Below, piece after piece: positions 11,401-28,634 of a stretch of DNA of 32,000 nt (positions are counted from its first letter, which is position 1; each line of letters opens with the position of its first letter). Source of the DNA: an uncultured Thiomicrospira sp. (GTDB lineage Bacteria; Pseudomonadota; Gammaproteobacteria; CAKMZV01); contig OZ239628.1 of NCBI GenBank assembly GCA_965195345.1, positions 803,339 through 835,338 of the forward strand, in the 5' to 3' direction. Below the pieces are notes generated by a model. It was not told the DNA's origin. It saw only the letters and a program-made list of their open reading frames with translations, and did no database searches. The translations under genes were made by a program, and so were the position numbers.

Positions 11401-13250
11401 GCTCTACCACTTTAGTGATCACCGTTACTGATGGTGATGGCTTAAGCACTTCAGCAACCGCTCAAGTTACTGTTGTATCAGGTGTTTTGAATGTTTTGAA
11501 TGTAAATTTAAATGTTAAGCGCATTAACTTTTCTTGGAACACACTTCCTGCAGCAAATCATTACCGCATGCTTAGCAATGTTGATGTGAATGCTGGTGGT
11601 GGTTTTGTTGATGCCAGTAGCGCAGGTTTGGTGTTTGTACCGAATAGTACGAATATTATCAATACTACAGTCTCTGCAACAGTGGATATAGCACGCTATC
11701 TTTCTACGGCTGATGGACCACAGTATCTGCTACAAGCTTGTAGTAGTGTTGACAATTCCGTTTGTTCTGATCTTGCGCAAGAATCTCTGAGTAATATTCA
11801 GTTAGAGGGATTGATTGGTTATTTCAAGGCTTCTAATACAGATGCAGATGATGAATTTGGTGAGGGTGTCGCAATAAGCGGTGATGGCAACACATTAGTT
11901 GTCGGTGCACCATTTGAGGACAGCACCGCCACTAGTATCAACGGCGATCAAACAAACAATAGTGCGGGTGATTCTGGTGCAGCCTATGTTTTCGTGCGCA
12001 GTAGTACGGGCAGCTGGCGTCAACAAGCATACCTTAAAGCCTCTGATGCACAAGCTAATGATCAGTTTGGTGCAGTTGTAACAATAAGCAATGACGGTAA
12101 TACTATAGTTGTTGGTGCAGAATTTAAGGATGTTGGCGCTCCTGGCGGTGTCCCCCAAGGCGACGCTGGTGCAGCCTATGTTTTCGTGCGCAGTAGTACC
12201 GGCAGCTGGCGTCAACAAGCTTTCATCAGCGCTTCTAATCTAAATGCCAATGATCGGTTTGGAAGAACTGTATCGGTTGCTGCTGATGGTAATACACTCG
12301 CTATCGGTGCACCTTTAAAAAGTGTACCTGGCACAAATCCTTTCACGGGTCAACCTGCGAGTATAGCTAATGTTGGTACAGCCTATGTTTTTGTACGCAG
12401 TAGTACGGGTACATGGAGTGAGCAAGCTTTATTGACACCACCTGCTGTAACACTTAATGCTAATTTTGGTAATGCTGTATCGATGAGTGGTGATGGTAAT
12501 ACCATGGTCGTTGGTGCAGTTGGTGACCAAAGTACTGGCATGGGTATCGACAGTGATGAATTCACCACTTTTGTTTTTGGTTCTGGTGCAGCCCATGTTT
12601 TTGTACGCAGTAGTACGGGTACATGGAGTCGGCAAGCTTATATTAAAGCCTCAAATTCAGAAAGTGTTGATCTCTTTGGTACAGCTGTATCGATGAGCGG
12701 TGATGGTAATACCATGGTCGTTGGTGCACCACAAGAAGACAGCAATGCCACGGGTATCGACGGCGATCAAGCAAATAATGGTAGTGGTGCTGATGGTATT
12801 AATTCAAATTCTGGTGCAGCCTATGTTTTTGTGCGCAGTAGTACGGGCACATGGACGCAAGATGCCTATATCAAAGCCTCAAATACAGGACTTGGTGATG
12901 AGTTTGGTTTTGCTGTTTCAATGAGAAGTGATGGTAATGCGTTCGTTGTTGGTGCACCATTTGAGGACAGCAATGCCACGGGAATCAACGGGGGGCAAGC
13001 AGATGGTGCTAATAACGCTGGTGCAGCCTATCTGTTTGTGCGCAGCAGCGCAGGCACATGGAGTCAACAAGCCTACACCAAAGCCTCAAACACAGGAGCT
13101 GATGATGCGTTTGGTTCAGTTCTCTCAATAAGCAGTGATGGTACAACGTTTGCTGTTGGCGCACCCAATGAAAACAGCAGTGCCACTGGTATCAATGGTA
13201 ATCAAACAGACGATAGTCAAGATAACGCTGGTGCAGCGTATTTGTATTAG
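5484..13250 (+). CDS. Paralog 2: 2588-aa predicted lipoprotein adhesin with 21 Ig/cadherin-like units (17 near-identical), an FN3-like neck and a 7-blade FG-GAP propeller
   Basis: ATG at 5484 is preceded by AAGGTG (5471-5476, 7-nt spacer). The N-terminus MGYIQRWAFLLLLVFLSAC is a signal peptide with lipobox LSAC (Cys codon 5538-5540). Unit order: one A-type, C-type, 11 B-type, C-type, 6 B-type, one terminal. Neck 11508-11819, blades 11820-13247. Ends GAAYLY, TAG. Confidence 0.95.
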   Translation: MGYIQRWAFLLLLVFLSACGGGDGDTIPPSTNTTPTLSLSVNAVTLDEDFGTFIINTTATDVEDGTLSVTVSGQAGLLTTNATTDQITLTSIANANGTTTLTVSATDSGALTVSTEVVVIVNAANDTPTLTFSTTQFSLNANFMPQTIATATDVDDASLLLTFALSATDVVQITTVANRFILNPITNAFGETTITLTATDSSGNQSSQRFTVHVNASIASTTPTLALSTQRITLDEDFGTFVINTTASDAEDGVLPVAVTGQDASLFAVTTSTDQIILTSVANATGIATLTVSIVDSGNLSATTEVVVVVNGINDSPTLTLSTTNLSLSEDFGTFVINTTASDAEDGVLPVAVTGQDASLFAVTTSTDQIILTSVANATGIATLTVSIVDSGNLSATTEVVVVVNGINDSPTLTLSTTNLSLSEDFGTFVINTTASDAENGRLPVAVTGQDASLFAVTTSTDQIILTSVANANGTATLTVSIVDSGNLSATTEVVVVVNGINSAPALTLSTTNLSLSEDFGTFVINTTATDVEDGVLPVAVTGQDASLFAVTTSTDQIILTSVANANGTATLTVSIVDSGNISATTEVVVVVNAINDSPTLTLSTTNLSLSEDFGTFVINTTASDAEDGVLPVAVTGQDASLFAVTTSTDQIILTSVANANGTATLTVSIVGSGNLSATTEVVVVVNAINDSPTLTLSTTNLSLSEDFGTFIINTTATDAEDGVLPVAVTGQDASLFAVTTSTDQIILTSVANANGIATLTVSIVDSGNLSATTEVVVVVNAINDSPTLTLSTTNLSLSEDFGTFVINTTASDAEDGVLPVAVTGQDASLFAVTTSTDQIILTSVANANGTATLTVSIVGSGNLSATTEVVVVVNAINDSPTLTLSTTNLSLSEDFGTFIINTTATDAEDGVLPVAVTGQDASLFAVTTSTDQIILTSVANANGIATLTVSIVDSGNLSATTEVVVVVNAINDSPTLTLSTTNLSLSEDFGTFVINTTATDVEDGVLPVAVTGQDASLFAVTTSTDQIILTSVANANGTATLTVSIVDSGNLSASTEVVVVVNAINDSPTLTLSTTNLSLSEDFGTFVINTTASDAEDGVLPVAVTGQDASLFAVSTSTDQIILTSVANANGTATLTVSIVDSGNLSASTEVIVIVNGINSSPALTLSTTNLSLSEDFGTFVINTTASDAEDGVLPVAVTGQDASLFAVTTSANQIILTSVANANGRATLTVSIVDSGNLSASTEVVVLVNAVNDTPTLTFSTTQFSLNANFTPQTIATATDVDDASLLLTFALSATDVVQITTVANRFILNPITNAFGETTITLTATDNSGNQSSQIFTVRVNGFPTLALSTQRVTLDEDFGTFVINTTASDAEDGVLPVAVTGQDASLFAVTTSTNQIMLTSIANANGIATLTVSIVDSGNLSATTEVVVVVNAINDNPTLTLSTTNLSLSEDFGTFVINTTASDAEDGVLPVGVTGQDASLFAVTTSTDQIILTSVANANGIATLTVSIVDSGNLSATTEVVVVVNAINDSPTLTLSTTNLSLSEDFGTFVINTTASDAEDGVLPIAVTGQDASLFAVTTTTNQIILTSVANANGRATLTVSIVDSGNLSATTEVVVVVNAINDSPTLTLSTTNLSLSEDFGTFVINTTASDAEDGVLPVAVTGQDASLFAVTTSTDQIILTSVANANGTATLTVSIVDSGNLSATTEVVVVINAINDSPTLTLSTTNLSLSEDFGTFVINTTASDAEDGLLPVAVTGQDASLFAVTTSADQIILTSVANANGTATLTVSIVGSGNLSATTEVVVVVNAINDSPTLTLSTTNLSLSEDFGTFIINTTATDAEDGVLPVAVTGQDASLFAVTTSTNQIILTSVANATGIATLTVSIVDSGNLSATTEVVVVVNAVNDTPTLSLSSTNLTLTANTTALITAFGVDVETSSASLIFSVQQNPSLLQVSTQGNVIVLRAGATTGSTTLVITVTDGDGLSTSATAQVTVVSGVLNVLNVNLNVKRINFSWNTLPAANHYRMLSNVDVNAGGGFVDASSAGLVFVPNSTNIINTTVSATVDIARYLSTADGPQYLLQACSSVDNSVCSDLAQESLSNIQLEGLIGYFKASNTDADDEFGEGVAISGDGNTLVVGAPFEDSTATSINGDQTNNSAGDSGAAYVFVRSSTGSWRQQAYLKASDAQANDQFGAVVTISNDGNTIVVGAEFKDVGAPGGVPQGDAGAAYVFVRSSTGSWRQQAFISASNLNANDRFGRTVSVAADGNTLAIGAPLKSVPGTNPFTGQPASIANVGTAYVFVRSSTGTWSEQALLTPPAVTLNANFGNAVSMSGDGNTMVVGAVGDQSTGMGIDSDEFTTFVFGSGAAHVFVRSSTGTWSRQAYIKASNSESVDLFGTAVSMSGDGNTMVVGAPQEDSNATGIDGDQANNGSGADGINSNSGAAYVFVRSSTGTWTQDAYIKASNTGLGDEFGFAVSMRSDGNAFVVGAPFEDSNATGINGGQADGANNAGAAYLFVRSSAGTWSQQAYTKASNTGADDAFGSVLSISSDGTTFAVGAPNENSSATGINGNQTDDSQDNAGAAYLY
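5865..6149 (+). repeat. C-type Ig unit, first copy in paralog 2 (precedes the 11-unit B array)
   Basis: Near-identical to 9252-9521. Differences seen: M/T, S/N, R/I, H/R, plus an ASIASTT extension at the junction. Confidence 0.9.
6150..9251 (+). repeat. In-frame tandem array: 11 x 282 bp (94 aa) near-identical B-type cadherin-like units in paralog 2
   Basis: The unit-initial CCT/CCC (Pro of PTLTLS) recurs at 6150, 6432 and onward, with the next unit type starting at 9252, an exact 282-nt period. The antisense shadow ORFs in the track also recur every 282 nt (6305, 6587, 6869 ... 8843). Unit consensus: PTLTLSTTNLSLSEDFGTFVINTTASDAEDGVLPVAVTGQDASLFAVTTSTDQIILTSVANANGTATLTVSIVDSGNLSATTEVVVVVNAINDS. 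Confidence 0.95.
9252..9521 (+). repeat. C-type Ig unit, second copy in paralog 2 (precedes the 6-unit B array)
   Basis: Dispersed duplicate of 5865-6149, so paralog 2 is organised as [C unit + B array] twice. Confidence 0.9.
9522..11213 (+). repeat. In-frame tandem array: 6 x 282 bp further B-type units in paralog 2
   Basis: Begins at CCT 9522 (FPTLALSTQRVTLDEDFG) and ends before CCA 11214, where the terminal Ig unit begins. 6 x 282 = 1692 nt exactly. Confidence 0.95.
11508..13247 (+). other. Paralog 2 C-terminal head: FN3-like neck (11508-11819) plus seven FG-GAP blades (11820-13247)
   Basis: Same motifs as paralog 1. Seven FG..DGN cores: FGEGVAISGDGNT, FGAVVTISNDGNT, FGRTVSVAADGNT, FGNAVSMSGDGNT, FGTAVSMSGDGNT, FGFAVSMRSDGNA, FGSVLSISSDGTT. 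Blades 2-4 carry non-canonical loops. Confidence 0.75.
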
Positions 13251-13514
13251 AAATAAGTTAAAGTAGTAACTTCAAAAGTCTAAAAGTTTTCCAAAAATAT
13301 AAGCAAATTATTTTTGCAAGAGCACATGTTATTCCATTAGCTTTTATTCTATCGTTATGATTCTTATTGCTCTGAATTATTTCAGTTATTAGAGTAATTT
13401 GTAGTCTATAATGTCACGATTATTGACTCACTACATAGTGAGTATTTACTATTGCTATCTATGTGTAAATCACATGATGTTATCTTGTACTAACTTTCAC
13501 ACTGTGAGGATAAA
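13251..13514 (+). promoter_or_regulatory. Unique AT-rich spacer upstream of paralog 3 (not homologous to the common cassette)
   Basis: Only the first few nt after the stop resemble the other spacers. TATAAT at 13407-13412 has no good -35. A perfect palindrome lies at 13426-13443. RBS GTGAGGA 13504-13510. Confidence 0.35.
13426..13443. promoter_or_regulatory. Perfect 18-bp palindrome ACTCACTA-CA-TAGTGAGT upstream of paralog 3 (possible operator)
   Basis: actcacta and tagtgagt are exact reverse complements with a 2-nt centre. It lies 13 nt downstream of TATAAT 13407-13412 and about 70 nt upstream of the ATG. Confidence 0.3.
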
Positions 13515-15986: not shown

Positions 15987-16235
15987 AAGACGTATATAGC
16001 TAAAAGGCAATTAGAGTTGTTTGATTACTCGAGCATTATGTGTTCATCAGGAGAACAGGCGCACAACTTTCTTACTTAACGTTTCGCTGTAAATGTTATG
16101 AACTGTTTGCGAATTTTCTCATGCTTTAATTTGTAATGATTGAGATTGCTGGATTGTAGATATATTGCTTTTATCAAACACATAAACTGTTGTGATAATT
16201 GTGATTTCATAGTTAAAAATAAAATATAGGCCTAA
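15987..16235 (+). promoter_or_regulatory. Full-length conserved intergenic cassette upstream of paralog 4
   Basis: Aligns along its whole length with 19203-19449 and 23923-24170. TGTAAT 16132-16137. Proximal TTGTGA 16190-16195 with an A/T-rich hexamer 17-18 nt downstream. Confidence 0.4.
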
Positions 16236-19202
16236 ATGAAAATGAAACATTTAAAGTGCTGGGGGTTTCTATTGTCACTTGTTTTTCTATCTGCCTGCGG
16301 TGGCGGCGGCGGTGGCGGTGGCGGTGATACAGCACCTCCGATTATTGCGAGCACAACACCAAATTTAAGTGTATCGACCAATGCCGTAACACTCAATGAA
16401 GATTTTGGCACTTTTATCATCAACACCACTGCTACCGATGTAGAAGATGGAACGTTGTCAGTAACCGTATCTGGACAGGCTGGTTTGCTAACCACTGATA
16501 TTACCACTGGTCGAATTACCCTAACTTCTGTTGCCAATGCTAACGGCGTAACTACACTTACTGTACGTGCTACCGATAGCGGAAATCTCTCTGCTACCAC
16601 CGAAGTGGTTGTCACCATCAATGATGCTCCAACATTGACACTATCAACAACGAACCTCAGCCTCAGTGAAGATTTTGGCACTTTTGTCATCAACACCACA
16701 GCAAGTGATGCAGAAGATGGCGTGCTTCCCGTTGCAGTGACTGGACAAGATGCCAGTCTATTCGCCGTAACCACTTCTACCGATCAGATAATACTTACCT
16801 CCGTTGCTAATGCTAACGGCATAGCTACGCTTACAGTAAGCATTGTTGATAGTGGAAATCTCTCCGCTACCACCGAAGTGGTTGTTGTTGTCAATGCCAG
16901 TCCTACATTGACACTATCAACAACGAACCTCAGCCTCAATGAAGATTTTGGCACTTTTATCATCAACACCACTGCTACCGATGTAGAAGATGGAACGTTG
17001 TCAGTAACCGTATCTGGACAGGCTGGTTTGCTAACCACTGATATTACCACTGGTCGAATTACCCTAACTTCTGTTGCCAATGCTAACGGCGTAACCACAC
17101 TTACTGTACGTGCTACCGATAGCGGAAATCTCTCTGCTACCACCGAAGTGGTTGTCACCATCAATGATGCTCCAACGTTAAGTTTATCAACTACAAACTT
17201 AATCTTATTACCCAATAGTACTGGTAGGATAACTGCCGTTTTTGCGGATGTGGAAACAAGTAGTAACTTATTGACTTTTGTGATACAAGAAAATACAGCT
17301 TTGGTGCGGGTGAGTAGGCAAGGCAATGATGTCATCGTGCTGAGATCGAACACTGCGGCAGGCTCAACTACTTTAGTTGTTACCGTCACTGATGAAGGTG
17401 GGGCAAGCGCCTCAGAAACAGTTCGAGTTACTGTTCTCTCTAATGTTTTGAATGTCGCGTTAAATGTTAAACGCATTGATTTTTCTTGGGGCAACTTCCC
17501 TGAAGCAAATCATTACCGCATGCTCAGTAATGTCGATTTAACCGCTGGTGGTGGCTTTGTTGATGCTAGTAGTGCAAACTTGGTATTTTTGCCAAATAGT
17601 ACAAATATTATCAATACTACAGTCTCTGCAATAGTGGATGTAGCACGCTATCTTTCTGCGGTTAATGGACCAGAGTATCTGCTGCAAGCTTGTACCAGTG
17701 TGGACAACTCAGTTTGTTCTAATCTTGCGCAACAAACTCTGACCAATGCTCAGTTAGAAGGATTGATTGGTTACTTCAAAGCTTCTAATACAGGTGCTGA
17801 TGATAGGTTTGGTAGGGCTGTAGCAATAAGTGGTGATGGTAATACGCTTGCAGTCGGTGCTGCTTTTGAGGACAGCGACGCCAGGGGTATTAACGGCGGA
17901 ACAAATGATGCCCTCGCCGACTCTGGTGCAGTGTATGTTTTTGTACGCAACAGTGCAGGAACATGGGCACAACAAGCATACATTAAAGCCTCGAACTCAG
18001 GAGGAGATGATCAATTCGGTGCCAGTGTAGACCTAAGTAATGATGGTAATACCTTATTGGTTGGTGCACGTTTTGAGGACAGCGATGCGACTGGCATTAA
18101 CGGTGATGAAACAAACAATGATTCAAGAGCCTCTGGTGCAGCCTATATTTTTGTACGCAACAGTGGAGGCACATGGAGCCAACAAGCTTACGCCAAAGCC
18201 TCTAATACAGGATCTGATGATGACTTTGGTGAGGCTGTAGCAATAAGTGGTGATGGTAATACGCTAATTGTTGGTGCATCTGGTGAGGACAGCACCGCCA
18301 CGGGCATCAACGGGGATCAATTAGACAATTCTACAGCTAACTCTGGTGCAGCCTATGTTTTTGTGCGTAGTAGTACTGGTACATGGAGTCAACAAGTCTA
18401 CCTTAAAGCATCTAATGCAGAAGCCGGTGATAATTTTGGTAGAGCTTTATCGGCGAGCAGTAATGGCAATACCGTCATCGTTGCTGCGCCAAGTGAGGAC
18501 AGCGCTGCCACTGGCATCAATGGGAATCAATTAAATAATTCTACAGCTAACTCTGGTGCGGTCTATGTTTTCGTGCGTAGTAGTACTGGTACATGGAGTC
18601 AACAAGCCTATGTTAAAGCCTCTAATACAGGAACTAATGATGATTTTGGTTTTGCCTTGTCACTGAGCGATGATGGTAATACCATGGTCGTTGGTGCGCC
18701 TGCTGAAGACAGCAATTCTACCGGTGTTAATGGGGTTCAAACGAATAATGGCGTAAGTAACTCTGGTGCAGTCTATGTTTTTGTACGTAGTAGTACGGGC
18801 AGCTGGCGTCAACAAGCATATCTAAAAGCCTCCAATACAGATAATGACGATCTATTTGGTCATGCTGTAGCAATAAGCGGTGATGGTAATTCCATCATTG
18901 TTGGTGCAGTAGCTGAAGAAAGCGATGCCACAGGTATTAACGGCGATCAAACAAGCAATGCTACACGTTTTTCTGGTGCAGCCTATCTTTTTGTGCGTAG
19001 TGGTACGACATGGAGTCAACAAGCCTACATCAAAACAACGAACCCAGGCTTTTTTGATGAGTTTGGTGACGCTGTTTCAATAAGTAATGATGGTAAAACG
19101 TTTGCTGTTGGCGCACGCAATGAAGAAAGCAGTGCCACTGGTATCAATGGTGATCAAACAAACAATAGTCAAGATAACGCTGGTGCAGTGTATTTGTATT
19201 AA
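16236..19202 (+). CDS. Paralog 4: 988-aa predicted lipoprotein with 4 Ig-like units (A-B-A plus terminal), an FN3-like neck and a 7-blade FG-GAP propeller
   Basis: ATG at 16236; a second in-frame ATG at 16242 is an equally possible start. MKMKHLKCWGFLLSLVFLSAC carries lipobox LSAC (Cys codon 16296-16298), followed by Gly x9. Neck 17460-17771, blades 17772-19199. Ends GAVYLY, TAA. The head is most similar to that of paralog 3. Confidence 0.95.
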   Translation: MKMKHLKCWGFLLSLVFLSACGGGGGGGGGDTAPPIIASTTPNLSVSTNAVTLNEDFGTFIINTTATDVEDGTLSVTVSGQAGLLTTDITTGRITLTSVANANGVTTLTVRATDSGNLSATTEVVVTINDAPTLTLSTTNLSLSEDFGTFVINTTASDAEDGVLPVAVTGQDASLFAVTTSTDQIILTSVANANGIATLTVSIVDSGNLSATTEVVVVVNASPTLTLSTTNLSLNEDFGTFIINTTATDVEDGTLSVTVSGQAGLLTTDITTGRITLTSVANANGVTTLTVRATDSGNLSATTEVVVTINDAPTLSLSTTNLILLPNSTGRITAVFADVETSSNLLTFVIQENTALVRVSRQGNDVIVLRSNTAAGSTTLVVTVTDEGGASASETVRVTVLSNVLNVALNVKRIDFSWGNFPEANHYRMLSNVDLTAGGGFVDASSANLVFLPNSTNIINTTVSAIVDVARYLSAVNGPEYLLQACTSVDNSVCSNLAQQTLTNAQLEGLIGYFKASNTGADDRFGRAVAISGDGNTLAVGAAFEDSDARGINGGTNDALADSGAVYVFVRNSAGTWAQQAYIKASNSGGDDQFGASVDLSNDGNTLLVGARFEDSDATGINGDETNNDSRASGAAYIFVRNSGGTWSQQAYAKASNTGSDDDFGEAVAISGDGNTLIVGASGEDSTATGINGDQLDNSTANSGAAYVFVRSSTGTWSQQVYLKASNAEAGDNFGRALSASSNGNTVIVAAPSEDSAATGINGNQLNNSTANSGAVYVFVRSSTGTWSQQAYVKASNTGTNDDFGFALSLSDDGNTMVVGAPAEDSNSTGVNGVQTNNGVSNSGAVYVFVRSSTGSWRQQAYLKASNTDNDDLFGHAVAISGDGNSIIVGAVAEESDATGINGDQTSNATRFSGAAYLFVRSGTTWSQQAYIKTTNPGFFDEFGDAVSISNDGKTFAVGARNEESSATGINGDQTNNSQDNAGAVYLY
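16299..16325 (+). repeat. (GGY)9 in-frame microsatellite encoding Gly9 directly after the lipobox Cys of paralog 4
   Basis: ggt ggc ggc ggc ggt ggc ggt ggc ggt, then gat. Confidence 0.9.
16359..17171 (+). repeat. A-B-A unit block in paralog 4: A1 16359-16628, gene-2-type B unit 16629-16901, A2 16902-17171
   Basis: A1 (about 16395-16628) and A2 (about 16938-17171) lie 543 nt apart. By eye they differ at one base (ggcgtaacT vs ggcgtaacC) over about 237 nt. The unit between them reads like the paralog 2 B consensus (DGVLPVAVTGQDASLFAVTTSTDQIILTSVANANGIATLTVSIVDSGNLSATTEVVVVVN). Confidence 0.9.
17460..19199 (+). other. Paralog 4 C-terminal head: FN3-like neck (17460-17771) plus seven FG-GAP blades (17772-19199)
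   Basis: Same motifs. Seven cores: FGRAVAISGDGNT, FGASVDLSNDGNT, FGEAVAISGDGNT, FGRALSASSNGNT, FGFALSLSDDGNT, FGHAVAISGDGNS, FGDAVSISNDGKT. Confidence 0.75.
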
Positions 19203-19449
19203 ATACGTATATAGCTAAAAGGCAATTAGAGTTGCTTGATTAACCCACCATTATGTATTCATCAGGAGAACAGGCGCACAACTTTTTTACTTAATGTTTC
19301 GCTGTAAATGTTATGAACTGTTTGCATGTTTTCTCATGCTTTAATTTATAATGATTAGGATTGCTGGATTGTAGACATACTGCTTTTATCAAACACATAA
19401 ACTGTTGTGATAATTGTGATTTCATAGTTAAAATAAAATATAGGACTAA
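19203..19449 (+). promoter_or_regulatory. Full-length conserved intergenic cassette upstream of paralog 5, with two candidate sigma70-like promoters
   Basis: Distal candidate: TTGCAT 19322-19327, 19 nt, TATAAT 19347-19352. Proximal candidate: TTGTGA 19405-19410, 18 nt, TAAAAT 19429-19434; this would leave only about a 10-nt leader. Direct repeat TTGTGAT at 19405-19411 and 19414-19420. AGGA at 19442-19445. Confidence 0.4.
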
Positions 19450-22400
19450 ATGAAAATGAACCATTTAAAGTGCTGGGGATTTCTATTATCACTCGTTTTT
19501 TTATCTGCCTGTGGCGGTGGGGGTGGCGGCGATTCAACACCTCCGTCTACTAATACAGCACCAAGTTTAAGTCTCTCTGTCAATGCCCTAATGCTTGATG
19601 AAGATTTTGGCACTTTTGTCATCAATACCACTGCAACCGATGCAGAAGATGGGACACTGTCCGTAACTGTATCTGGACAGGCTGGTTTGCTAACCACTGA
19701 TGTCACCACTGGTCGAATTACCCTAACTTCTATTGCCAATGCTAACGGCACAACTACACTTACTGTACGTGCTACCGATAGCGGAAACCTCTCTGCTACC
19801 ACCGAAGTAGTTGTCACCATTAACGCCATCAATGATGCCCCGACATTTACTCTTGCTACAACAAACATTACTATCGTTGAAAATGCCACTGCTCGTCAAA
19901 CGATTTCCATTCCCAATGTAGTCGATGTTGACGGAAACGCACTGACCTTTTCAGTCATTGCCTCCACTTCTTTATTTAGTACTAACCCAACACCTGTTGT
20001 GTCTTTTTCAGATACAAGGGTGATAATCTCCGATACACAACCTACAGCTCAACTCTATTACAGCCTACTGCCCGACGTCACAGGCTCTGGCTTCATTCAA
20101 ATTGCTTTAACAGATGGCATAGAGACCCAACGTACGACCGTTACTGTTACTGTTACAGAAGTTAGAACTCCACCCCAAATTACCCAAGACTTTAGAACAC
20201 ATCGCTTCTTTGATGCGCGTGCAACGCGTGTAGGCGCTGTTGGAGGTGTCTTATTTGCAGCACGAGGTGCATTTACTGGATCGACTGAAACAACCTCAAC
20301 AGATGGTACGGGGAATTTTAGTAATCAATTAAACTTTGTCCGTTCCTTAGGAGGGAGTTTAGCCGAACTTTACACTGAGGAAACATACAACGCTTTATTG
20401 GGTTCTGTTTTGGTTTCCAATGGCACTGCAACAGCAGACTTTAATGATGATCGTTTTTGGCTTGGACTCACTGATACACCCAATGCTTTTGGCGCTTCTG
20501 TGTCAGATCAATCTTCCTCATTAGAGCGTTATTTTTGGTTGTCTGGTCAGCGGGTGTCACAAGGATTAGGTATTTCTCGTATAGAAGTTCCAGGAGTGTA
20601 CATAGGCTGGGGGTCATCCGCCCCAACTGCAAGCAATGAGCCCTGTGCTAATTTGATTCTTGGTGCCGAAGTATCTGCAGGGCTCAGACCTTGGGCAAGT
20701 ACTGGGTGCGATGGATCATCATCTGCTACTTTCAATGTGCTAAAAGCGTTGATGCAGTTCCCAAATGGCTTACCTACTACTTCTTCAATGATTGTTCAAG
20801 CGAGGCTCCCAATCACCCGTATTCGTTTAAGTGGTTATGATCTTGATGGTTCAGATAATACATTGTCTTGGCAAGTTACCGATGCATCTGGTGGTGGTAT
20901 CACTACTTCCACAGTCTATAGCAGTACTGGCGCACAAACCTTAGAGATTTCTTACACTCCTGTGAGCGGCTTTTCAGGCACTGCGACCCTTGTTGTAAGC
21001 TTAGATGATGGTGATAGTGCTACGCAAAATAGTACTGCCCGTGTATTGGTGGTTAATAACACACCAACTTTAATATTTTCCACCAATACTGTCAGCTTAG
21101 ATGAAGACTTTACCAGATTCGTCATTAACACCACTGCAACCGATGCAGCAGGGATAATCGACTTTAGTGTTAGCACAGGAAACGGTATTGTTTTTGTAAC
21201 CACCTCTGCTAATGCGATTACACTGCAATCACTTTCGAATATAAATGGTGCTGTAACCTTAACAGTCGTTGCGGATAGTGGTCTTTTGACAAATACACAG
21301 ACGATTAGCGTTGTGGTTAATCCAGTTAATGACACTCCCACGCTGTCTTTATCTGTGACGCAAAGGGTGCTTGCTCAAAACTTTGGCACTTTCGTCATCA
21401 ACACCACTGCAACCGATGTGGATTCAGGCCCATTGGGCTTTAGTGTCAGTACAGGTAATGGCATTGTTAATGTAACAACCTCTGTCAATACGATTACTCT
21501 GCAATCACTCGCTAATGTCATAGGCGATGTTACGTTAACGGTTAGCGTAAGCGATGGACTATTGACGACGACACAGTCCATTTTTATAACCGTTAGTAGA
21601 CCGTTTACGTTTGAAGTATCGACAAACACTATCGTTTTAGATGAAGATTTTAATACCTTCATTATTAACACCACTGCAACGGCTGCAGATGGGACTATAT
21701 TACCTATTTCAGTGGTGCAGAGCAGCTCTAACCTACTTACATTCAGCACTATAACTGGGCGCATTACCCTTTCATCTATTGCGAATGCTAATGGAGTAAC
21801 AACCCTTACCGTGAGTGCAGCTAATCAAAATGGACTAACGAACACGACAGAAGTAGCCATTACCGTTAATTCCGTTAATGATACTCCCACACTCAGTTTA
21901 TCAAGTACAGACTTAACTTTCTCACCTAATGGAACCGGTTTTATAACTGCTTTTGGTGCGGATGTGGAAACAAGCAGTGCCTCATTGATCTATTCTGTAC
22001 AACAAAACCCATCTTTGTTACAGGTGAGTACACCAGGCAATGTCATCGTACTGAGAGCGGGTGATACTACAGGCTCGACCACTTTAGTGATCACCGTTAC
22101 TGATGGCGGTGGTTCAAGCGCTTCAGCAACCGCTCGAGTTACTGTTTTATCAGGTGTTTTGAATGCTTTGAATGTAAGTTTAAATGTTAAACGCATTAAC
22201 TTTTCTTGGAACACACTTCCTACAGCAAATCATTACCGCATGCTTAGCAATGTTGATTTGAATGCTGGTGGTGGTTTTGTTGATGCCAGTAGCGCAGGCT
22301 TGGTGTTTGTACCGAATAGTACGAATATTATCAATACTACAGTCTCTGCAACAGTGGATGTAGCAGGCTATCTTTCTACGGCTGATGGACCACAGTACCT

Positions 22401-23922
22401 GCTACAAGCTTGTAGTAGTGTTGACAATTCCGCTTGTTCTAATCTTGCACAACAATCTCTGAGCAATATTCAGTTAGAGGGATTGATTGGTTATTTCAAA
22501 GCTTCTAATACAGATGCAGATGATGAATTTGGTGAGGGTGTCGCAATAAGCGGTGATGGCAACACATTAGTTGTCGGTGCACCATTTGAGGACAGCACCG
22601 CCACTGTCATCAACGGCGATGAATCAGACAATTCTAGAAGTGACTCTGGTGCAGCCTATGTTTTCGTGCGTAGTAGTACGGGCAGCTGGCGTCAACAAGC
22701 CTATATCAAAGCCTTTGATGCACAAGCCAATGGTCAGTCTAATTCAGCTGTACCAAGGAGCAATGATCAGTTTGGTGCAGCTGTAACAATAAGCAATGAC
22801 GGTAATACTATAGTTGTTGGTGCAGAATTTAAGGATGTTGCCGCTCCTGGCGGTTCCGTTCAGCCCAACACTGGTGCAGCCTATGTTTTCGTGCGCAGTA
22901 GTACCGGCAGCTGGCGTCAACAAGCTTTCATCAGCGCTTCTAATCTAAATGCCAATGATCGGTTTGGAAGAACTGTATCGGTCGCTGCTGATGGTAATAC
23001 ACTCGCTGTCGGTGCACCTTTAAAAAGCGTAAATGCTCTAACTTCTGTTGGTACAGCCTATGTTTTTGTACGCAGTAGTACAGATTCATCATGGAGTGAG
23101 CAAGCTTTATTTACACCACCTACTGTAATAATTAGTAGTAATTTTGGTTCTGCTGTATCGATGAGTGGTGATGGTAATACCATGGTCGTTGGTGCAAGTG
23201 GTGACCGAAGTAATGGCATGGGTATCAACGCTGATGAAGTCCCTACTAGTACTCCTCTTTTTAATTCTGGTGCAGCCCATGTTTTTGTACGCAGTAGTAC
23301 AGATAGTACATGGAGTCGGCAAGCTTATATTAGAGCCTCAAATCCAGGTAGTACTGATCTCTTTGGTGCAGCTGTATCGATGAGTGGTGATGGTAATACC
23401 ATGGTCGTTGGTGCACATCAAGAAGACAGCAATGCCACGGGAATCGGCGGGGGGCAAGGAGATGTTAGTAATCCTAATTCAAATTTTGGTGCAGCCTATG
23501 TTTTTGTGCGCAGTAGTACGGGCACATGGAGCCAACAAGAATATATCAAAGCCTCAAATACAGGATTTGGTGATGTGTTTGGTTTTGCTGTTTCAATGCG
23601 CAGTGATGGTAATGCGTTCGTTGTTGGTGCACCATTTGAGGACAGCAATGCCACGGGAATCAACGGGGTCCAAGGAGGTGGTGCTACTGACGCTGGTGCA
23701 GTCTATCTTTTTGTACGCAGTGGTACGACATGGCGTCAACAAGCCTACATCAAAGCCTCAAACACAGGAGCTGATGATGAGTTTGGTGACTCTGTTTCAA
23801 TAAGCAGTGATGGTAAAACGCTTGCTGTCGGTGCACCCAATGAAGATAGCAATGCCACTGGTATCAATGGTAATCAAACAGACGATAGTCAAGATGACGC
23901 TGGTGCAGTGTATTTGTATTAG
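19450..23922 (+). CDS. Paralog 5: 1490-aa predicted lipoprotein with 7 Ig-like units, a C-type-lectin-like insert, an FN3-like neck and a 7-blade FG-GAP propeller
   Basis: ATG at 19450 (alternative at 19456), with AGGA at 19442-19445. MKMNHLKCWGFLLSLVFLSAC carries lipobox LSAC (Cys codon 19510-19512), followed by Gly x6. CTLD-like 20191-20760, neck 22180-22491, blades 22492-23919. Ends GAVYLY, TAG. Confidence 0.95.
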   Translation: MKMNHLKCWGFLLSLVFLSACGGGGGGDSTPPSTNTAPSLSLSVNALMLDEDFGTFVINTTATDAEDGTLSVTVSGQAGLLTTDVTTGRITLTSIANANGTTTLTVRATDSGNLSATTEVVVTINAINDAPTFTLATTNITIVENATARQTISIPNVVDVDGNALTFSVIASTSLFSTNPTPVVSFSDTRVIISDTQPTAQLYYSLLPDVTGSGFIQIALTDGIETQRTTVTVTVTEVRTPPQITQDFRTHRFFDARATRVGAVGGVLFAARGAFTGSTETTSTDGTGNFSNQLNFVRSLGGSLAELYTEETYNALLGSVLVSNGTATADFNDDRFWLGLTDTPNAFGASVSDQSSSLERYFWLSGQRVSQGLGISRIEVPGVYIGWGSSAPTASNEPCANLILGAEVSAGLRPWASTGCDGSSSATFNVLKALMQFPNGLPTTSSMIVQARLPITRIRLSGYDLDGSDNTLSWQVTDASGGGITTSTVYSSTGAQTLEISYTPVSGFSGTATLVVSLDDGDSATQNSTARVLVVNNTPTLIFSTNTVSLDEDFTRFVINTTATDAAGIIDFSVSTGNGIVFVTTSANAITLQSLSNINGAVTLTVVADSGLLTNTQTISVVVNPVNDTPTLSLSVTQRVLAQNFGTFVINTTATDVDSGPLGFSVSTGNGIVNVTTSVNTITLQSLANVIGDVTLTVSVSDGLLTTTQSIFITVSRPFTFEVSTNTIVLDEDFNTFIINTTATAADGTILPISVVQSSSNLLTFSTITGRITLSSIANANGVTTLTVSAANQNGLTNTTEVAITVNSVNDTPTLSLSSTDLTFSPNGTGFITAFGADVETSSASLIYSVQQNPSLLQVSTPGNVIVLRAGDTTGSTTLVITVTDGGGSSASATARVTVLSGVLNALNVSLNVKRINFSWNTLPTANHYRMLSNVDLNAGGGFVDASSAGLVFVPNSTNIINTTVSATVDVAGYLSTADGPQYLLQACSSVDNSACSNLAQQSLSNIQLEGLIGYFKASNTDADDEFGEGVAISGDGNTLVVGAPFEDSTATVINGDESDNSRSDSGAAYVFVRSSTGSWRQQAYIKAFDAQANGQSNSAVPRSNDQFGAAVTISNDGNTIVVGAEFKDVAAPGGSVQPNTGAAYVFVRSSTGSWRQQAFISASNLNANDRFGRTVSVAADGNTLAVGAPLKSVNALTSVGTAYVFVRSSTDSSWSEQALFTPPTVIISSNFGSAVSMSGDGNTMVVGASGDRSNGMGINADEVPTSTPLFNSGAAHVFVRSSTDSTWSRQAYIRASNPGSTDLFGAAVSMSGDGNTMVVGAHQEDSNATGIGGGQGDVSNPNSNFGAAYVFVRSSTGTWSQQEYIKASNTGFGDVFGFAVSMRSDGNAFVVGAPFEDSNATGINGVQGGGATDAGAVYLFVRSGTTWRQQAYIKASNTGADDEFGDSVSISSDGKTLAVGAPNEDSNATGINGNQTDDSQDDAGAVYLY
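19513..19530 (+). repeat. (GGN)6 tract encoding Gly6 after the lipobox Cys of paralog 5 (identical tract at 24234-24251 in paralog 6)
   Basis: ggc ggt ggg ggt ggc ggc, then gat. Confidence 0.9.
20191..20760 (+). other. C-type-lectin-like domain (CTLD) inserted in the paralog 5 stalk
   Basis: FRTHRFFDARATRVG...LGGSLAELYTEETYNALLG...DDRFWLGLTD...ERYFWLSGQRVS...YIGWGSSAPTASNEPCANLILG...RPWASTGCDG...LKALMQF. Same motif order as in paralog 1. Confidence 0.55.
22180..23919 (+). other. Paralog 5 C-terminal head: FN3-like neck (22180-22491) plus seven FG-GAP blades (22492-23919)
   Basis: Same motifs, seven cores. Blades 1-4 closely resemble those of paralog 2, for example FKDV.APGG replacing the canonical EDSxATGING loop in blade 2. 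Confidence 0.75.
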
Positions 23923-24170
23923 AAGACGTATATAGCTAAAAGGCAATTAGAGTTGCTTGATTACCCCACCATTATGTGTTCATCAGGAGAACAGGCACAC
24001 AGCTTTTTTACTTAATGTTTCGCTGTAAATGTTATGAACTGTTTGCATGTTTTCTCATGCTTTAATTTATAATGATTAGGATTGCTGGATTGTAGACATA
24101 CTGCTTTTATCAAACACATAAACTGTTGTGATAATTGTGATTTCATAGTTAAAATAAAATATAGGACTAA
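23923..24170 (+). promoter_or_regulatory. Full-length conserved intergenic cassette upstream of paralog 6
   Basis: Near-identical copy of 19203-19449. TATAAT 24068-24073, TTGTGA 24126-24131, TAAAAT 24150-24155. Confidence 0.4.
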
Positions 24171-27100
24171 ATGAAAATGAACCATTTAAAGTGCTGGGGA
24201 TTTCTATTATCACTCGTTTTTTTATCTGCCTGTGGCGGTGGGGGTGGCGGCGATTCAACACCTCCGTCTACTAATACAGCACCAAGTTTAAGTCTCTCTG
24301 TCAATGCCCTAATGCTTGATGAAGATTTTGGCACTTTTGTCATCAATACCACTGCAACCGATGCAGAAGATGGGACACTGTCCGTAACTGTATCTGGACA
24401 GGCTGGTTTGCTAACCACTGATGTCACCACTGGTCGAATTACCCTAACTTCCATTGCCAATGCTAACGGCACAGCTACACTTACTGTACGTGCTACCGAT
24501 AGCGGAAACCTCTCTGCTACCACCGAAGTGGTTGTCACCATTAACGCCATCAATGATGCCCCGACATTTACTCTTGCTACAACAAACATTACTATCGTTG
24601 AAAATGCCACTGCTCGTCAAACGATTTCCATTCCCAATGTAGTCGATGTTGACGGAAACGCACTGACCTTTTCAGTCATTGCCTCCACTTCTTTATTTAG
24701 TACTAACCCAACACCTGTTGTGTCTTTTTCAGATACAAGGGTGATAATCTCCGATACACAACCTACAGCTCAACTCTATTACAGCCTACTGCCCGACGTC
24801 ACAGGCTCTGGCTTCATTCAAATTGCTTTAACAGATGGCATAGAGACCCAACGTACGACCGTTACTGTTACTGTTACAGAAGTTAGAACTCCACCCCAAA
24901 TTACCCAAGACTTTAGAACACATCGCTTCTTTGATGCGCGTGCAACGCGTGTAGGCGCTGTTGGAGGTGTCTTATTTGCAGCACGAGGTGCATTTACTGG
25001 ATCGACTGAAACAACCTCAACAGATGGTACGGGGAATTTTAGTAATCAATTAAACTTTGTCCGTTCCTTAGGAGGGAGTTTAGCCGAACTTTACACTGAG
25101 GAAACATACAACGCTTTATTGGGTTCTGTTTTGGTTTCCAATGGCACTGCAACAGCAGACTTTAATGATGATCGTTTTTGGCTTGGACTCACTGATACAC
25201 CCAATGCTTTTGGCGCTTCTGTGTCAGATCAATCTGCCTCAGTAGAGCGTTATTTTTGGTTGTCTGGTCAGCGGGTGTCACAAGGATTAGGTATTTCTCG
25301 TATAGAAGTTCCAGGAGTGTACATAGGCTGGGGGGCATCCGCCCCAACTGCAAGCAATCAGCCCTGTGCTAATTTGATTCTTGGTGCCGAAGTATCTGCA
25401 GGTCTCAGACCTTGGGCAAGTACTGGGTGCGATGGATCATCATCTGCTACTTTCAATGTGCTAAAAGCGTTGATGCAGTTCCCAAATGGCTTACCTACTA
25501 CTTCTTCAATGATTGTTCAAGCGAGGCTCCCAATCACACGTATTCGTTTAAGTGGTTATGATCTTGATGGTTCAGATAATACATTGTCTTGGCAAGTTAC
25601 CGATGCATCTGGTGGTGGTATCACTACTTCCACAGTCTATAGCAGTACTGGCGCACAAACCTTAGAGATTTCTTACACTCCTGTGAGCGGCTTTTCAGGA
25701 ACTGCGACCCTTGTTGTAAGCTTAGATGATGGTGATAGTGCTACGCAAAATAGTACTGCCCGTGTATTGGTGGTTAATAACACACCAACTTTAACACTCT
25801 CAACCAATGTTGTCAGCTTAGATGAAGACTTTACCAGCTTCGTCATTAACACCACTGCAACCGATGCAGCAGGGATAATCGACTTTAGTGTTAGCACAGG
25901 AAACGGTATTGTTTTTGTAACCACCTCTGCTAATGCGATTACACTGCAATCACTTTCGAATATAAATGGTGCTGTAACCTTAACAGTCGTTGCGGATAGT
26001 GGTCTTTTGACAAATACACAGACGATTAGCGTTGTGGTTAATCCAGTTAACGACACTCCCACGCTGTCTTTATCTGTGACGCAAAGGGTGCTTGCTCAAA
26101 ACTTTGGCACTTTCGTCATCAACACCACTGCAACCGATGTGGATTCAGGCCCATTGGGCTTTAGTGTCAGTACAGGTAATGGCATTGTTAATGTAACAAC
26201 CTCTGTCAATACGATTACTCTGCAATCACTCGCTAATGTCATAGGCGATGTGACGTTAACGGTTAGCGTAAGCGATGGACTATTGACGACGACACAGTCC
26301 ATTTTTATAACCGTTAGTAGACCGTTTACGTTTGAAGTATCGACAAACACTATCGTTTTAGATGAAGATTTTAATACCTTCATTATTAACACCACTGCAA
26401 CGGCTGCAGATGGGACTATATTACCTATTTCAGTGGTGCAGAGCAGTTCTAACCTACTTACATTCAGCACTATAACTGGGCGCATTACCCTTTCATCTAT
26501 TGCGAATGCTAATGGAGTAACAACTCTTACCGTGAGTGCGGCTAATCAAAATGGACTAACGAACACGACAGAAGTAGCGATTACCGTTAATTCCGTTAAT
26601 GACACTCCCACACTCAGCTTATCAACTACAAACTTAACTTTCTCACCTAATGGAACCGGTTTTATAACTGCTTTTGGTGCGGATGTGGAAACAAGCAGTG
26701 CCTCATTGATCTATTCTGTACAACAAAATCCATCTTTGTTGCAGGTGAGTACACCAGGCAATGTCATTGTACTGAGAGCGGATGATACTACAGGTTCGAC
26801 AACTTTAGTGATAACCGTTACTGATGGCGGTGGTTCAAGCGCTTCAGCAACTGCTCGAGTTACTGTTCTATCAGGTGTTTTGAATGCTTTGAGCGTAAGT
26901 TTAAATGTTAAACGCATTAACTTTTCTTGGAACACACTTCCTACAGCAAACCATTACCGTATGCTTAGCAATGTCGATTTGAACGCTGGTGGTGGTTTTG
27001 TTGATGCCAGTAGCGCAGGTTTGGTGTTTATACCGAATAGCACGAATATTATCAATACTACAGTCTCTGCAACAGTGGATGTGGCACGCTATCTTTCTAC

Positions 27101-28634
27101 GGCTGATGGACCACAGTATCTGCTGCAAGCTTGTAGTAGTGTGGACAATTTCGCTTGTTCTAATCTTGCACAACAATCTCTGAGCAATATTCAGTTAGAG
27201 GGATTGATTGGTTACTTCAAAGCTTCTAATACGGAAATGGGAGATGAATTTGGTGAGGGTGTCGCAATAAGTGGTGATGGCAACACATTAGTTGTCGGTG
27301 CACCCGGAGAAGATAGCGACGCCACCGGCATCAACGGCGATGAATCAGACAATTCTAGAAGTAACTCTGGTGCAGCCTATGTTTTCGTGCGCAGTAGTAC
27401 AGGCAGCTGGCGTCAACAAGCATACCTTAAAGCCTCTGATGCAGCAGATGATGATGGGTTTTCTTCAAGAGCTGTAACAATAAGCAATGACGGTAATACT
27501 ATAGTTGTTGGTGCACCACGCAAGGATGTTGCCGCTCCTGGCGGTAGCCCCCAGGGCAACACTGGTGCAGCCTATGTTTTCGTGCGCAGTAGTACCGGCA
27601 GCTGGCGTCAACAGGCTTTCATCAGCGCTTCTAATCTAAATGCCAATGATCAGTTTGGAACAGCTGTATCGGTTGCTGCTGATGGTAATACACTCGCTAT
27701 CGGTGCGCCTTCAAAAACTGTACGTACTATAGATTCTATGGGTCAATCTGTGAGCAGAGCTACTGCTGGTACAGCCTATGTTTTTGTACGCAGTAGTACA
27801 GATTCATCATGGAGTGAGCAAGCTATATTGACAGCACCTTTTGTAACGAGTTTTGCTTTTTTTGGTAATGCTGTATCGATGAGTGGTGATGGTAATACCA
27901 TGGTCGTCGGTGCAGACGGTGACCAAAGTACTGGCACGGGTATCGGCAGTGATGAATCCACCATTAATGATTTTGGTACCGGTGCTGCCCATGTTTTTGT
28001 ACGTAGTAGTACGGGTAGATGGAGTCGGCAAGAATATTTTAAAGCCTCAAATGCAGAAGGTACTGATCTCTTTGGTACAGCTGTATCGATGAGCGGTGAT
28101 GGTAATACCATGGTCGTTGGTGCACCAGGGGAAGACAGCAATGCCACGGGTGTCGACGGGGATCAAGCAAATAATGGTAGTGGTGTTAATTCAAATTCTG
28201 GTGCAGCCTATGTTTTTGTGCGCAGTAGTACGGGCACATGGACGCAAGAAGCCTATATCAAAGCCTCAAATACAGGAGATGGTGATGTGTTTGGTTCTGT
28301 TCTCTCAATGAGCAATGATGGTAATGCGTTCGTTGTTGGTGCACCAAATGAGGACAGCAATGCCACGGGAATCAACGGGGGGGAAGCAGGTGGTGCTAAT
28401 AACGCTGGTGCAGTCTATCTTTTTGTGCGCAGTGGTACGACATGGCGTCAACAAGCCTATACCAAAGCCTCAAACACAGGAGCTGATGATGCGTTTGGTG
28501 ACTCTGTTTCAATAAGCAGTGATGGTAAAACGTTTGCTGTTGGCGCATCTGGCGAAAATGGCAGCGCCACTGGTATCAATGGCGATCAAACAGACGATAG
28601 TCAAGATAACGCTGGTGCAGTGTATTTGTATTAG
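24171..28634 (+). CDS. Paralog 6: 1487-aa predicted lipoprotein, a tandem duplicate of paralog 5 with a diverged propeller
   Basis: Offset exactly 4721 bp from paralog 5. Identical signal peptide and lipobox (Cys codon 24231-24233). I count 16 aa differences from paralog 5 over the first 1014 aa. CTLD-like 24912-25481, neck 26901-27212, blades 27213-28631. Ends GAVYLY, TAG. Confidence 0.95.
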   Translation: MKMNHLKCWGFLLSLVFLSACGGGGGGDSTPPSTNTAPSLSLSVNALMLDEDFGTFVINTTATDAEDGTLSVTVSGQAGLLTTDVTTGRITLTSIANANGTATLTVRATDSGNLSATTEVVVTINAINDAPTFTLATTNITIVENATARQTISIPNVVDVDGNALTFSVIASTSLFSTNPTPVVSFSDTRVIISDTQPTAQLYYSLLPDVTGSGFIQIALTDGIETQRTTVTVTVTEVRTPPQITQDFRTHRFFDARATRVGAVGGVLFAARGAFTGSTETTSTDGTGNFSNQLNFVRSLGGSLAELYTEETYNALLGSVLVSNGTATADFNDDRFWLGLTDTPNAFGASVSDQSASVERYFWLSGQRVSQGLGISRIEVPGVYIGWGASAPTASNQPCANLILGAEVSAGLRPWASTGCDGSSSATFNVLKALMQFPNGLPTTSSMIVQARLPITRIRLSGYDLDGSDNTLSWQVTDASGGGITTSTVYSSTGAQTLEISYTPVSGFSGTATLVVSLDDGDSATQNSTARVLVVNNTPTLTLSTNVVSLDEDFTSFVINTTATDAAGIIDFSVSTGNGIVFVTTSANAITLQSLSNINGAVTLTVVADSGLLTNTQTISVVVNPVNDTPTLSLSVTQRVLAQNFGTFVINTTATDVDSGPLGFSVSTGNGIVNVTTSVNTITLQSLANVIGDVTLTVSVSDGLLTTTQSIFITVSRPFTFEVSTNTIVLDEDFNTFIINTTATAADGTILPISVVQSSSNLLTFSTITGRITLSSIANANGVTTLTVSAANQNGLTNTTEVAITVNSVNDTPTLSLSTTNLTFSPNGTGFITAFGADVETSSASLIYSVQQNPSLLQVSTPGNVIVLRADDTTGSTTLVITVTDGGGSSASATARVTVLSGVLNALSVSLNVKRINFSWNTLPTANHYRMLSNVDLNAGGGFVDASSAGLVFIPNSTNIINTTVSATVDVARYLSTADGPQYLLQACSSVDNFACSNLAQQSLSNIQLEGLIGYFKASNTEMGDEFGEGVAISGDGNTLVVGAPGEDSDATGINGDESDNSRSNSGAAYVFVRSSTGSWRQQAYLKASDAADDDGFSSRAVTISNDGNTIVVGAPRKDVAAPGGSPQGNTGAAYVFVRSSTGSWRQQAFISASNLNANDQFGTAVSVAADGNTLAIGAPSKTVRTIDSMGQSVSRATAGTAYVFVRSSTDSSWSEQAILTAPFVTSFAFFGNAVSMSGDGNTMVVGADGDQSTGTGIGSDESTINDFGTGAAHVFVRSSTGRWSRQEYFKASNAEGTDLFGTAVSMSGDGNTMVVGAPGEDSNATGVDGDQANNGSGVNSNSGAAYVFVRSSTGTWTQEAYIKASNTGDGDVFGSVLSMSNDGNAFVVGAPNEDSNATGINGGEAGGANNAGAVYLFVRSGTTWRQQAYTKASNTGADDAFGDSVSISSDGKTFAVGASGENGSATGINGDQTDDSQDNAGAVYLY
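24912..25481 (+). other. C-type-lectin-like domain (CTLD) inserted in the paralog 6 stalk
   Basis: Copy of the paralog 5 domain with 4 aa differences: SSSL to SASV (two changes), GSSAP to GASAP, SNEPC to SNQPC. Confidence 0.55.
26901..28631 (+). other. Paralog 6 C-terminal head: FN3-like neck (26901-27212) plus seven FG-GAP blades (27213-28631)
   Basis: Same motifs, seven cores. The FG of blade 2 is degenerate (SSRAVTISNDGNT). Blades 5-7 resemble those of paralog 2. Confidence 0.75.

Follow-up and report, generated by a model that had tools for sequence, protein, structure and literature searches.

How do two neighbouring genes come to share nearly identical upstream DNA and 5' halves while the heads of the encoded proteins have sharply diverged? 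The question is raised by a 32,000-nucleotide stretch of the genome of an uncultured Thiomicrospira sp. (GenBank assembly GCA_965195345.1, contig OZ239628.1, positions 803,339 to 835,338; hereafter the window), which carries seven paralogous genes, all on the same strand. A preliminary description of this DNA singled out the fifth and sixth genes (paralogs 5 and 6) as a tandem pair offset by exactly 4721 base pairs (bp), and the start-to-start distance of their open reading frames (ORFs) is indeed 4721 bp. The answer is that the two copies are separated by two boundaries rather than one: the first is a difference in age, left by gene conversion, and the second is a change in amino-acid constraint. 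The pair is made up as follows.

19203..19449, + strand: upstream intergenic cassette of paralog 5 (247 nucleotides, nt), its last ~165 nt identical to the cassette of paralog 6
19450..23922, + strand: paralog 5 (1490 amino acids, aa), with a lipoprotein-type signal, Big_9/cadherin-like stalk repeats, a CTLD-like insert, a neck and a C-terminal seven-blade FG-GAP_2 propeller
23923..24170, + strand: upstream intergenic cassette of paralog 6 (248 nt)
24171..28634, + strand: paralog 6 (1487 aa), with the architecture of paralog 5

The resemblances and differences first reported for the pair hold on recounting. The cassettes are identical from ~19,283, their differences being confined to the first ~80 nt; the first 1014 residues contain exactly the 16 amino-acid differences announced; and beyond residue 1014 the heads do differ at many dozens of positions and by indels (123 of 487 alignment columns, about 25 of them gaps). 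Nucleotide identity between the copies is 99-100% from ~19,283 to ~21,800 and about 95-96% from there to ~22,500, after which it varies from 53 to 96% per 100-nt bin and mostly lies at 81-95%. Synonymous divergence (dS) and nonsynonymous divergence (dN), estimated by the Nei-Gojobori method for copy 5 against copy 6, do not change at the same place. In the 5' stalk (codons 1-780), dS is 0.017 and dN 0.006 (dN/dS 0.34); in the last stalk repeats and the neck (codons 781-1014), the values are 0.150 and 0.013 (dN/dS 0.09); and in the propeller (codons 1015-1490), they are 0.158 and 0.140 (dN/dS 0.89). A likelihood scan puts the synonymous change point at codon 784 (nt 21,799), where dS jumps about ninefold (twice the log-likelihood difference, 2dlnL, 67.6; support within 2 log-likelihood units, codons 744-789), and the nonsynonymous one at codon 1021 (nt 22,510), the start of the propeller (2dlnL 232.6; support 1015-1021). 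The two support intervals do not overlap, and the same scan finds no extra synonymous step at the propeller start (2dlnL 3.4). Instead of the one step that had been placed at the first blade there are two, with the conversion boundary 711 nt upstream of the blade, and these divide the copies into three zones.

19283..21799 (copy-6 partner 24004-26520), + strand: recently homogenised tract of copy 5, with 20 nt differences in ~2.5 kb, non-coding DNA included
21800..22509 (partner 26521-27230), + strand: last stalk repeats with the neck, outside the homogenised tract of this strain
22510..23919 (partner 27231-28631), + strand: propeller head of copy 5, forming a block-wise mosaic together with paralogs 2 and 6

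The step at codon 784 is a difference in age. Since the dS of the neck equals that of the propeller, the step at the first blade is not one of age and reflects a change in amino-acid constraint, the neck being under purifying selection. Equal synonymous divergence in stalk and propeller had been named in advance as the result that would speak against a stepped history of the pair; such equality is found for the 234-codon neck only (0.150 vs 0.158), and the 5' stalk differs (0.017).

The age of the first step can be judged from a second, independent assembly. A database search with the head retrieved a 1485-aa protein with an 84% identical head, encoded on a 317-kb contig (ENA ERZ25066422 contig_40, locus L098). 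This contig carries a syntenic array, q1-q3-q5-q6-q7, with the same tandem pair (p and q denote here the copies of the first and second genomes). Flanking single-copy DNA is 98.6% identical between the two, and a patatin-like gene there has a dS of 0.044 and a dN of 0.006, a baseline that rests on about 1.2 kb; by this measure, the two genomes are those of close strains. Over codons 1-780, dS is 0.017 for p5-p6 and 0.012 for q5-q6, and 0.138-0.146 for all four cross-strain pairs. Among quartet-informative sites in these 780 codons, 149 group the copies by genome, two by locus, and one is crossed; in blades 2-5, 28 group them by locus, eight by genome, and three are crossed. The copies therefore go back to a duplication older than the strain split, and their 5' halves were homogenised after it, separately in each strain. 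Paralogs of one genome are closer to each other than to their orthologs at synonymous and non-coding sites alike, the cassette being included in the tract, and the tract has discrete ends that differ between the two independent events. The end lies at codon 784 here, and in the other strain the tract also takes in the neck and blade 1 and ends at about codon 1100-1126 (change point ~1126, support 990-1129), so that the propeller boundary is no fixed stop for conversion. The 5' parts thus show concerted evolution by gene conversion, the first of the two explanations initially offered for the pair: the copies group by genome (149:2:1), with a dS of 0.012-0.017 vs 0.14.

Part of the remaining difference within the homogenised tract is concentrated in one place.

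21074..21117 (partner 25795-25838), + strand: patch of 44 nt with seven of the tract's 20 differences

This patch, PTLIFSTNTVSLDEDFTRF / PTLTLSTNVVSLDEDFTSF, had been noticed as a cluster of replacements in which the paralog 6 version equals paralog 1, and both the cluster and the identity with paralog 1 (window 2393-2434) are real. The paralog 5 alleles of the patch are unique within the genome. What had been called a conversion-tract signature does stand as one of micro-conversion, but its direction is ambiguous, and the state seen in paralog 6 may simply be ancestral.

The history of the heads is of another kind and involves a third gene of the window.

11799..13247, + strand: propeller head of paralog 2, third mosaic partner, with 90% nt identity to copy 5 and 89% to copy 6

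The stalk of paralog 2 is just 75% identical at its 5' end to those of copies 5 and 6. In the tree, the heads of paralogs 2, 5 and 6 group together with good support, but the approximately unbiased (AU) test does not separate the possible branching orders within this trio (p = 0.23), as a mosaic would lead one to expect. Sites that set one head apart from the other two are clustered (codon-level runs test, 61 runs vs 85 +/- 5 expected, p = 5e-5), and the longest concordant runs for the pairs 2-5 and 5-6 each have p = 1e-4 (about 1 in 10,000 permutations). When the heads of the second strain are added in a five-way display of sites, blocks with zero differences adjoin blocks with 10-37 differences per 30 codons, and for the central blades of q6 this genome offers no close match. 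The heads of paralogs 2, 5 and 6 are thereby shown to be block-wise mosaics. Between strains, the heads of copies 5 and 6 (p5-q5, dS 0.108 and dN 0.094; p6-q6, dS 0.222 and dN 0.156) have diverged far more than the flanks, and more than the heads of paralog 7 (p7-q7, dS 0.019 and dN 0.007) and paralog 1 (p1-q1, dS 0.094 and dN 0.030). Because point mutation cannot raise dS locally, this excess points to imported variation, that is, to block replacement by recombination. Fast divergence appears to occur only in those parts that have close paralogs, as would be expected if conversion drives the change. The replacement of heads, also considered at the outset, is therefore supported as block mosaicism with paralog 2 and with unsampled donors, but not as a single swap.

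Some smaller observations concern the same heads. That of paralog 7 (within window 28795-31998 and L098:19378-22917) is the most divergent of the array, with a dS of only 0.019 between strains, and its stalk has a dS of 0.139. In the last blade (window 23752-23919 / 28464-28631), paralog 6 matches q6 at 100% and q5 almost completely; paralog 5 differs there from p6, q5 and q6 alike at 16 sites, its last blade being lineage-specific and without a donor in this genome. Adjacent blades of a single propeller share ~75% nucleotide identity (window 23143-23867, 27981-28528) with a period of 216-219 nt, and blade-to-blade exchange within a gene may also be possible.

The second step can be followed to the level of the fold. 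FG-GAP_2 (PF14312) is matched above its cut-off in seven stretches of each copy (E = 8e-57 and 6e-55), and an AlphaFold2 (AF2) model of paralog 5 residues 1008-1490 is a seven-blade propeller (predicted local distance difference test, pLDDT, 93; predicted template modelling score, pTM, 0.93). Each blade has four strands, and the seventh pairs an N-terminal strand beside the C-terminal one, closing the ring. The best PDB matches returned by Foldseek for this model are integrin alpha propellers (4wjk_A and 9dia_A; template modelling score, TM, ~0.6, E ~1e-16, 16-17% identity). By the convention used for beta-propellers, the 4-1 and 2-3 loops lie on one face, and in integrin alpha subunits these loops build the ligand-binding face. 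With residue classes taken from the strand positions in the AF2 model, the 4-1 and 2-3 loops have a dN of 0.25 and contain 23 of the 25 gap columns between copies 5 and 6, vs a dN of 0.05 in the strands and the 1-2 and 3-4 loops; the ratio of nonsynonymous to synonymous changes also differs between the two classes (Fisher p = 0.005). In the modelled structure, the replacements are thus shown to sit in the 4-1 and 2-3 loops. The scaffold of the propeller is moderately conserved (dN/dS 0.4-0.5).

This pattern invites the explanation that the heads diverged mainly through positive diversifying selection acting on point mutations in the ligand-binding loops. Across the propeller, dN/dS is 0.87-0.98 in the 2/5/6 trio, vs 0.24 in the similarly young pair a1/a5. 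The 4-1 loops reach 1.7-2.6, and blades 2-6 have values of 1.2-1.7, vs 0.23-0.45 for blades 1 and 7; the location of the replacements in the 4-1 and 2-3 loops agrees with such selection as well. However, dN/dS is not significantly above 1 in any of three partitions, by loop class, by conservation in distant homologs or by blade. It is 1.01 for the 4-1 and 2-3 loops together (P = 0.51), 1.71 for the 4-1 loops alone (P = 0.13), and 1.12 for the third of columns most variable in distant homologs (P = 0.39). Furthermore, the dS of the heads is 2.5-5 times the flank baseline and the differences come in blocks, which points to variation that was imported. Diversifying selection on the heads, as first proposed, is not demonstrated by these values, the variable loops standing at ~1.0; positive selection on the loops is possible, and relaxed constraint fits equally well. 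As the main cause of head divergence, selection on point mutations is rather unlikely.

The reading that we consider very probable combines an old duplication, gene conversion of the 5' parts in each strain, mosaic heads and differing constraint, in proteins that are likely to be surface adhesins or receptors. Paralogs 5 and 6 would be members of a 14-gene array of stalk-and-head proteins, anchored by a lipid at the N terminus, and their duplication would predate the split of strains that are ~98.6% identical in the flanks. After this split, non-reciprocal homologous recombination between the neighbours would have overwritten ~2.5 kb, from the upstream cassette to codon ~784, erasing the synonymous and non-coding differences in that tract. 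The same overwriting would have occurred independently in the other strain, reaching about codon 1100-1126. Downstream of the tract, the older divergence (dS ~0.15) would have been kept, with constraint varying from neck to scaffold to loops; change in the 4-1 and 2-3 loops, which hold all but two of the indel columns, would be close to neutral (~1.0). Finally, the heads would be reshuffled in short blocks among paralogs 2, 5 and 6 and donors absent from this genome, and as a result they would differ between strains far more than the flanks do.

Several points weigh against this account. A dN/dS that nowhere significantly exceeds 1 would also be produced by relaxed constraint in the loops. The 5' dS of 0.14 between strains is three to seven times the flank baseline, so that simple homogenisation is insufficient alone. 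At least one strain must therefore also have imported different stalk sequence, before or during its spread to both copies, an idea that fits the patchy 95-100% matches of the copy 5 and 6 stalks to paralogs 1, a1, a5 and a6. The comparison involves two strains only, with the short flanking baseline given above, and the assembly of this genome is supported only indirectly. Lastly, CAD42, the one tested protein of similar make-up, was without effect in a sponge-uptake assay (PMC13747020).

The remaining explanations do less well. A recent tandem duplication of the whole unit, after which one copy received a new neck and head from a third paralog, would account for a propeller of paralog 2 that is as close to copies 5 and 6 as these are to each other, and for the short tracts of copy 5 that are 98-99% identical to paralog 2. 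It is nevertheless very improbable. The other strain has both loci, and the heads group by locus across strains (28 vs 8), so that both must predate the strain split, while the 5' identity arose after it (149:2:1); no near-identical donor of a whole head exists in the genome, the dS to paralog 2 being 0.11-0.14. Simple unequal crossover was also considered as the origin of copy 5 and rejected: the 3' end of copy 5 should then match that of its neighbour upstream, and both halves should be of the same age, and neither is the case.

Still harder to sustain is an artefact of assembly or polishing, in which a single real copy was entered twice or consensus polishing evened out the 5' halves. Near-identity over 2.5 kb, which is longer than short reads can bridge, does make such an error conceivable. 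However, the same pair is present in the independent assembly, where the 5' halves are likewise homogenised but differ from those of this genome at 149 fixed sites. In one short-read metagenome run, unitig depth is 27-29 for sequence specific to copy 5 and 23-24 for copy 6, about half that of the listed unitigs of the shared stalk (41-68). The apparent joints in the reads are other paralogs; their interpretation as hybrid alleles was abandoned, since they are paralog 2 and the b1/b2 paralogs.

Programmed diversification, whether by a diversity-generating retroelement (DGR), by antigenic variation from silent cassettes or by phase variation through repeat slippage, is the least credible of all: the stalk does contain a CTLD-like insert, CTLDs being the usual target scaffold of DGRs, and many tandem paralogs share their 5' ends, but a search of the complete genome for an RVT_1 reverse transcriptase gave nothing, although its controls gave matches, there is no adenine bias (99 of 182 differences involve A), the variable part is 1.4 kb of propeller and not the CTLD-like insert, all 14 array copies are full-length ORFs and a lipobox motif and a cassette are present in each of the ten checked, the Gly linker is in mixed codons (GGC GGT GGG GGT GGC GGC) with no homopolymer, and there is neither an Rfam match in the window nor a recombinase in the flanks.

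An old pair with converted 5' parts and mosaic heads belongs to a well-known process, and it is an ordinary case of bacterial surface-protein variation, whose value lies in being a clear, quantified example and in the annotation it provides. What is distinctive is the clean separation of processes and the extreme variability of the heads at the strain level. Three processes that are usually confounded are told apart at this locus: recent conversion, seen as a step in dS; a change in constraint, seen as a step in dN only; and the block-wise mosaicism of the heads. The second strain dates all three. Similar cases are the babA/babB/babC genes of Helicobacter pylori and the opa genes of Neisseria, and concerted evolution by gene conversion has been described in loci for host-interacting lipoproteins of Borrelia (PMC11389397). 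Such families of bacterial surface proteins resemble the present one in their homogenised 5' ends and upstream DNA, their diverse binding part, their short mosaic tracts and their strain-variable copy number. Unlike them, this family is a head-to-tail array of 14 genes, carried by an uncultured marine gammaproteobacterium with a 1.9-Mb genome, and what varies is a complete beta-propeller. In plant nucleotide-binding leucine-rich-repeat (NLR) families, exposed residues have repeatedly been found to show dN/dS above 1, which is not so here. The tandem clusters of these resistance genes also undergo gene conversion (PMC3113787, PMC4619397). As in the array, some parts are homogenised by conversion and hypervariability is kept at the exposed positions of a binding domain built from repeats, but the NLR proteins are unrelated and eukaryotic.

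Comparisons of structure and domain make-up bear on what the proteins may do. The propeller of integrin alpha subunits has the same seven FG-GAP blades, and the 4-1 and 2-3 loops of its ligand face are the loops that vary here. Unlike integrin alpha, the present proteins have no beta subunit, thigh or calf domains or transmembrane helix; they carry a predicted N-terminal lipid anchor and the propeller at the C-terminal tip. Cadherin-type repeats paired with FG-GAP repeats also occur in the 'eukaryotic-like proteins' of sponge symbionts, among them CAD42, reported to be highly expressed in a sponge microbiome (PMC13747020); the likeness drawn here is one of domain make-up. The array proteins are most likely surface adhesins or receptors, whose surface exposure and binding function, together with selection maintaining the variety of the heads, we infer. 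The heads, the fastest-diverging DNA among the regions compared between both strains, would then be likely determinants of whatever these uncultured bacteria attach to. A more ambitious proposal can be put forward tentatively, as one that may well prove wrong: the array could be a strain-variable locus for head exchange, in which conversion keeps the cassettes and 5' stalks as recombination handles while heads are swapped block-wise, yielding a fast-changing binding repertoire under frequency-dependent selection from hosts, grazers or phages. If this is true, head swaps and the gain and loss of whole genes proceed several times faster than the rest of the genome diverges, and a small-genome marine bacterium has a counterpart of the plant NLR clusters or of the surface-antigen arrays of parasites.

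The other parts of the proteins are less clearly defined than the propeller. A putative lipobox, LFVFLSAC, followed by a Gly run lies at the N terminus and is visible in all ten paralogs inspected (criterion, [LVI][ASTVI][GAS]C at the end of the signal peptide). The Big_9 (PF17963) repeats of the stalk pass the gathering score (31.7 and 47.5 bits vs a cut-off of 23.6), and Cadherin_4 and Cadherin_5 score under their Pfam cut-offs. The CTLD-like insert (residues 235-470) reaches 14.7 bits for Pfam Lectin_C vs a cut-off of 22.6 (E = 0.053), its AF2 model (pLDDT 37) is unusable for a structure search, a sequence search of the PDB gave no match, and its Atlas feature score to Lectin_C clusters, 0.89, is no more than a lead. 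A ninth copy of this insert (47% identical) is found within a 14,360-aa ORF far from the array (genome 288556-289173). Exact-protein look-ups for copy 6 and two housekeeping neighbours returned no match. In the cassette of paralog 5, sigma-70-like consensus matches are present at 19386-19434 and a weak AGGA precedes the ATG; these promoter-like matches are no commoner than in shuffled sequence, the same is true of terminator consensus matches in the cassettes, and no regulatory RNA was detected by Rfam anywhere in the window.

The host genome is complete on a single contig of 1.92 Mb (39.8% GC, 99.7% complete). The seven genes of the window are half of a 75-kb head-to-tail array of 14 (genome 760,672-835,648; window 803339-835338), and three further members of the family lie outside it, at 1.229-1.237 Mb and 1.825 Mb, the whole family occupying ~4% of the genome. 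Its proteins range from 823 to 2658 aa with a very variable number of Big_9/cadherin-like repeats, and all end in seven FG-GAP_2 repeats. Module identities are incongruent family-wide, in the identity matrix as in the dS table: the heads of a1 and a5 are 97% identical, and a3 and a4 share 97% at the 5' ends and 86% in the heads. Among distant paralogs, the neck has a dS of 0.2-0.3 vs 0.5-0.7 for the head, so that necks have been partly homogenised across the family. GC-biased conversion or a foreign origin was considered and discarded: GC content at third codon positions is 0.343 in the family and 0.334 in the genome, and the array owes its higher GC to the first and second codon positions. 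In each of two congeneric genomes, both of 2.1 Mb, the propeller is matched more than 100 times, in ORFs that reach 12,231 aa. Searches of two further genera of the same taxonomic family did not recover these proteins, one weak match was obtained among 26 further families of the class, and propeller homologs elsewhere share at most about 50% identity. Judging by this distribution, the giant FG-GAP proteins would be a genus-specific expansion in small genomes.

The gene content of the array also differs between the two strains. The other strain is without paralog 2 and has in its place a 768-nt spacer (L098:6537-7304 vs window 5234-13514). This spacer combines the p1|p2 cassette and a short piece of propeller with the 3' terminus of paralog 2 and the cassette downstream of it, and it looks like a deletion scar. 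It is also without paralog 4, and there the ortholog of paralog 3 joins that of paralog 5 within a conserved cassette (L098:9753-10000 vs window 15987-19449). The cassettes seem to act as sites of gene gain and loss. Beyond the window, ~17 kb between paralog 7 and the patatin-like gene (genome 835809-853089) are absent from the related strain; this strain-specific stretch encodes a LodA-type lysine oxidase, a tryptophan-halogenase-like protein and an SpvB-domain protein.

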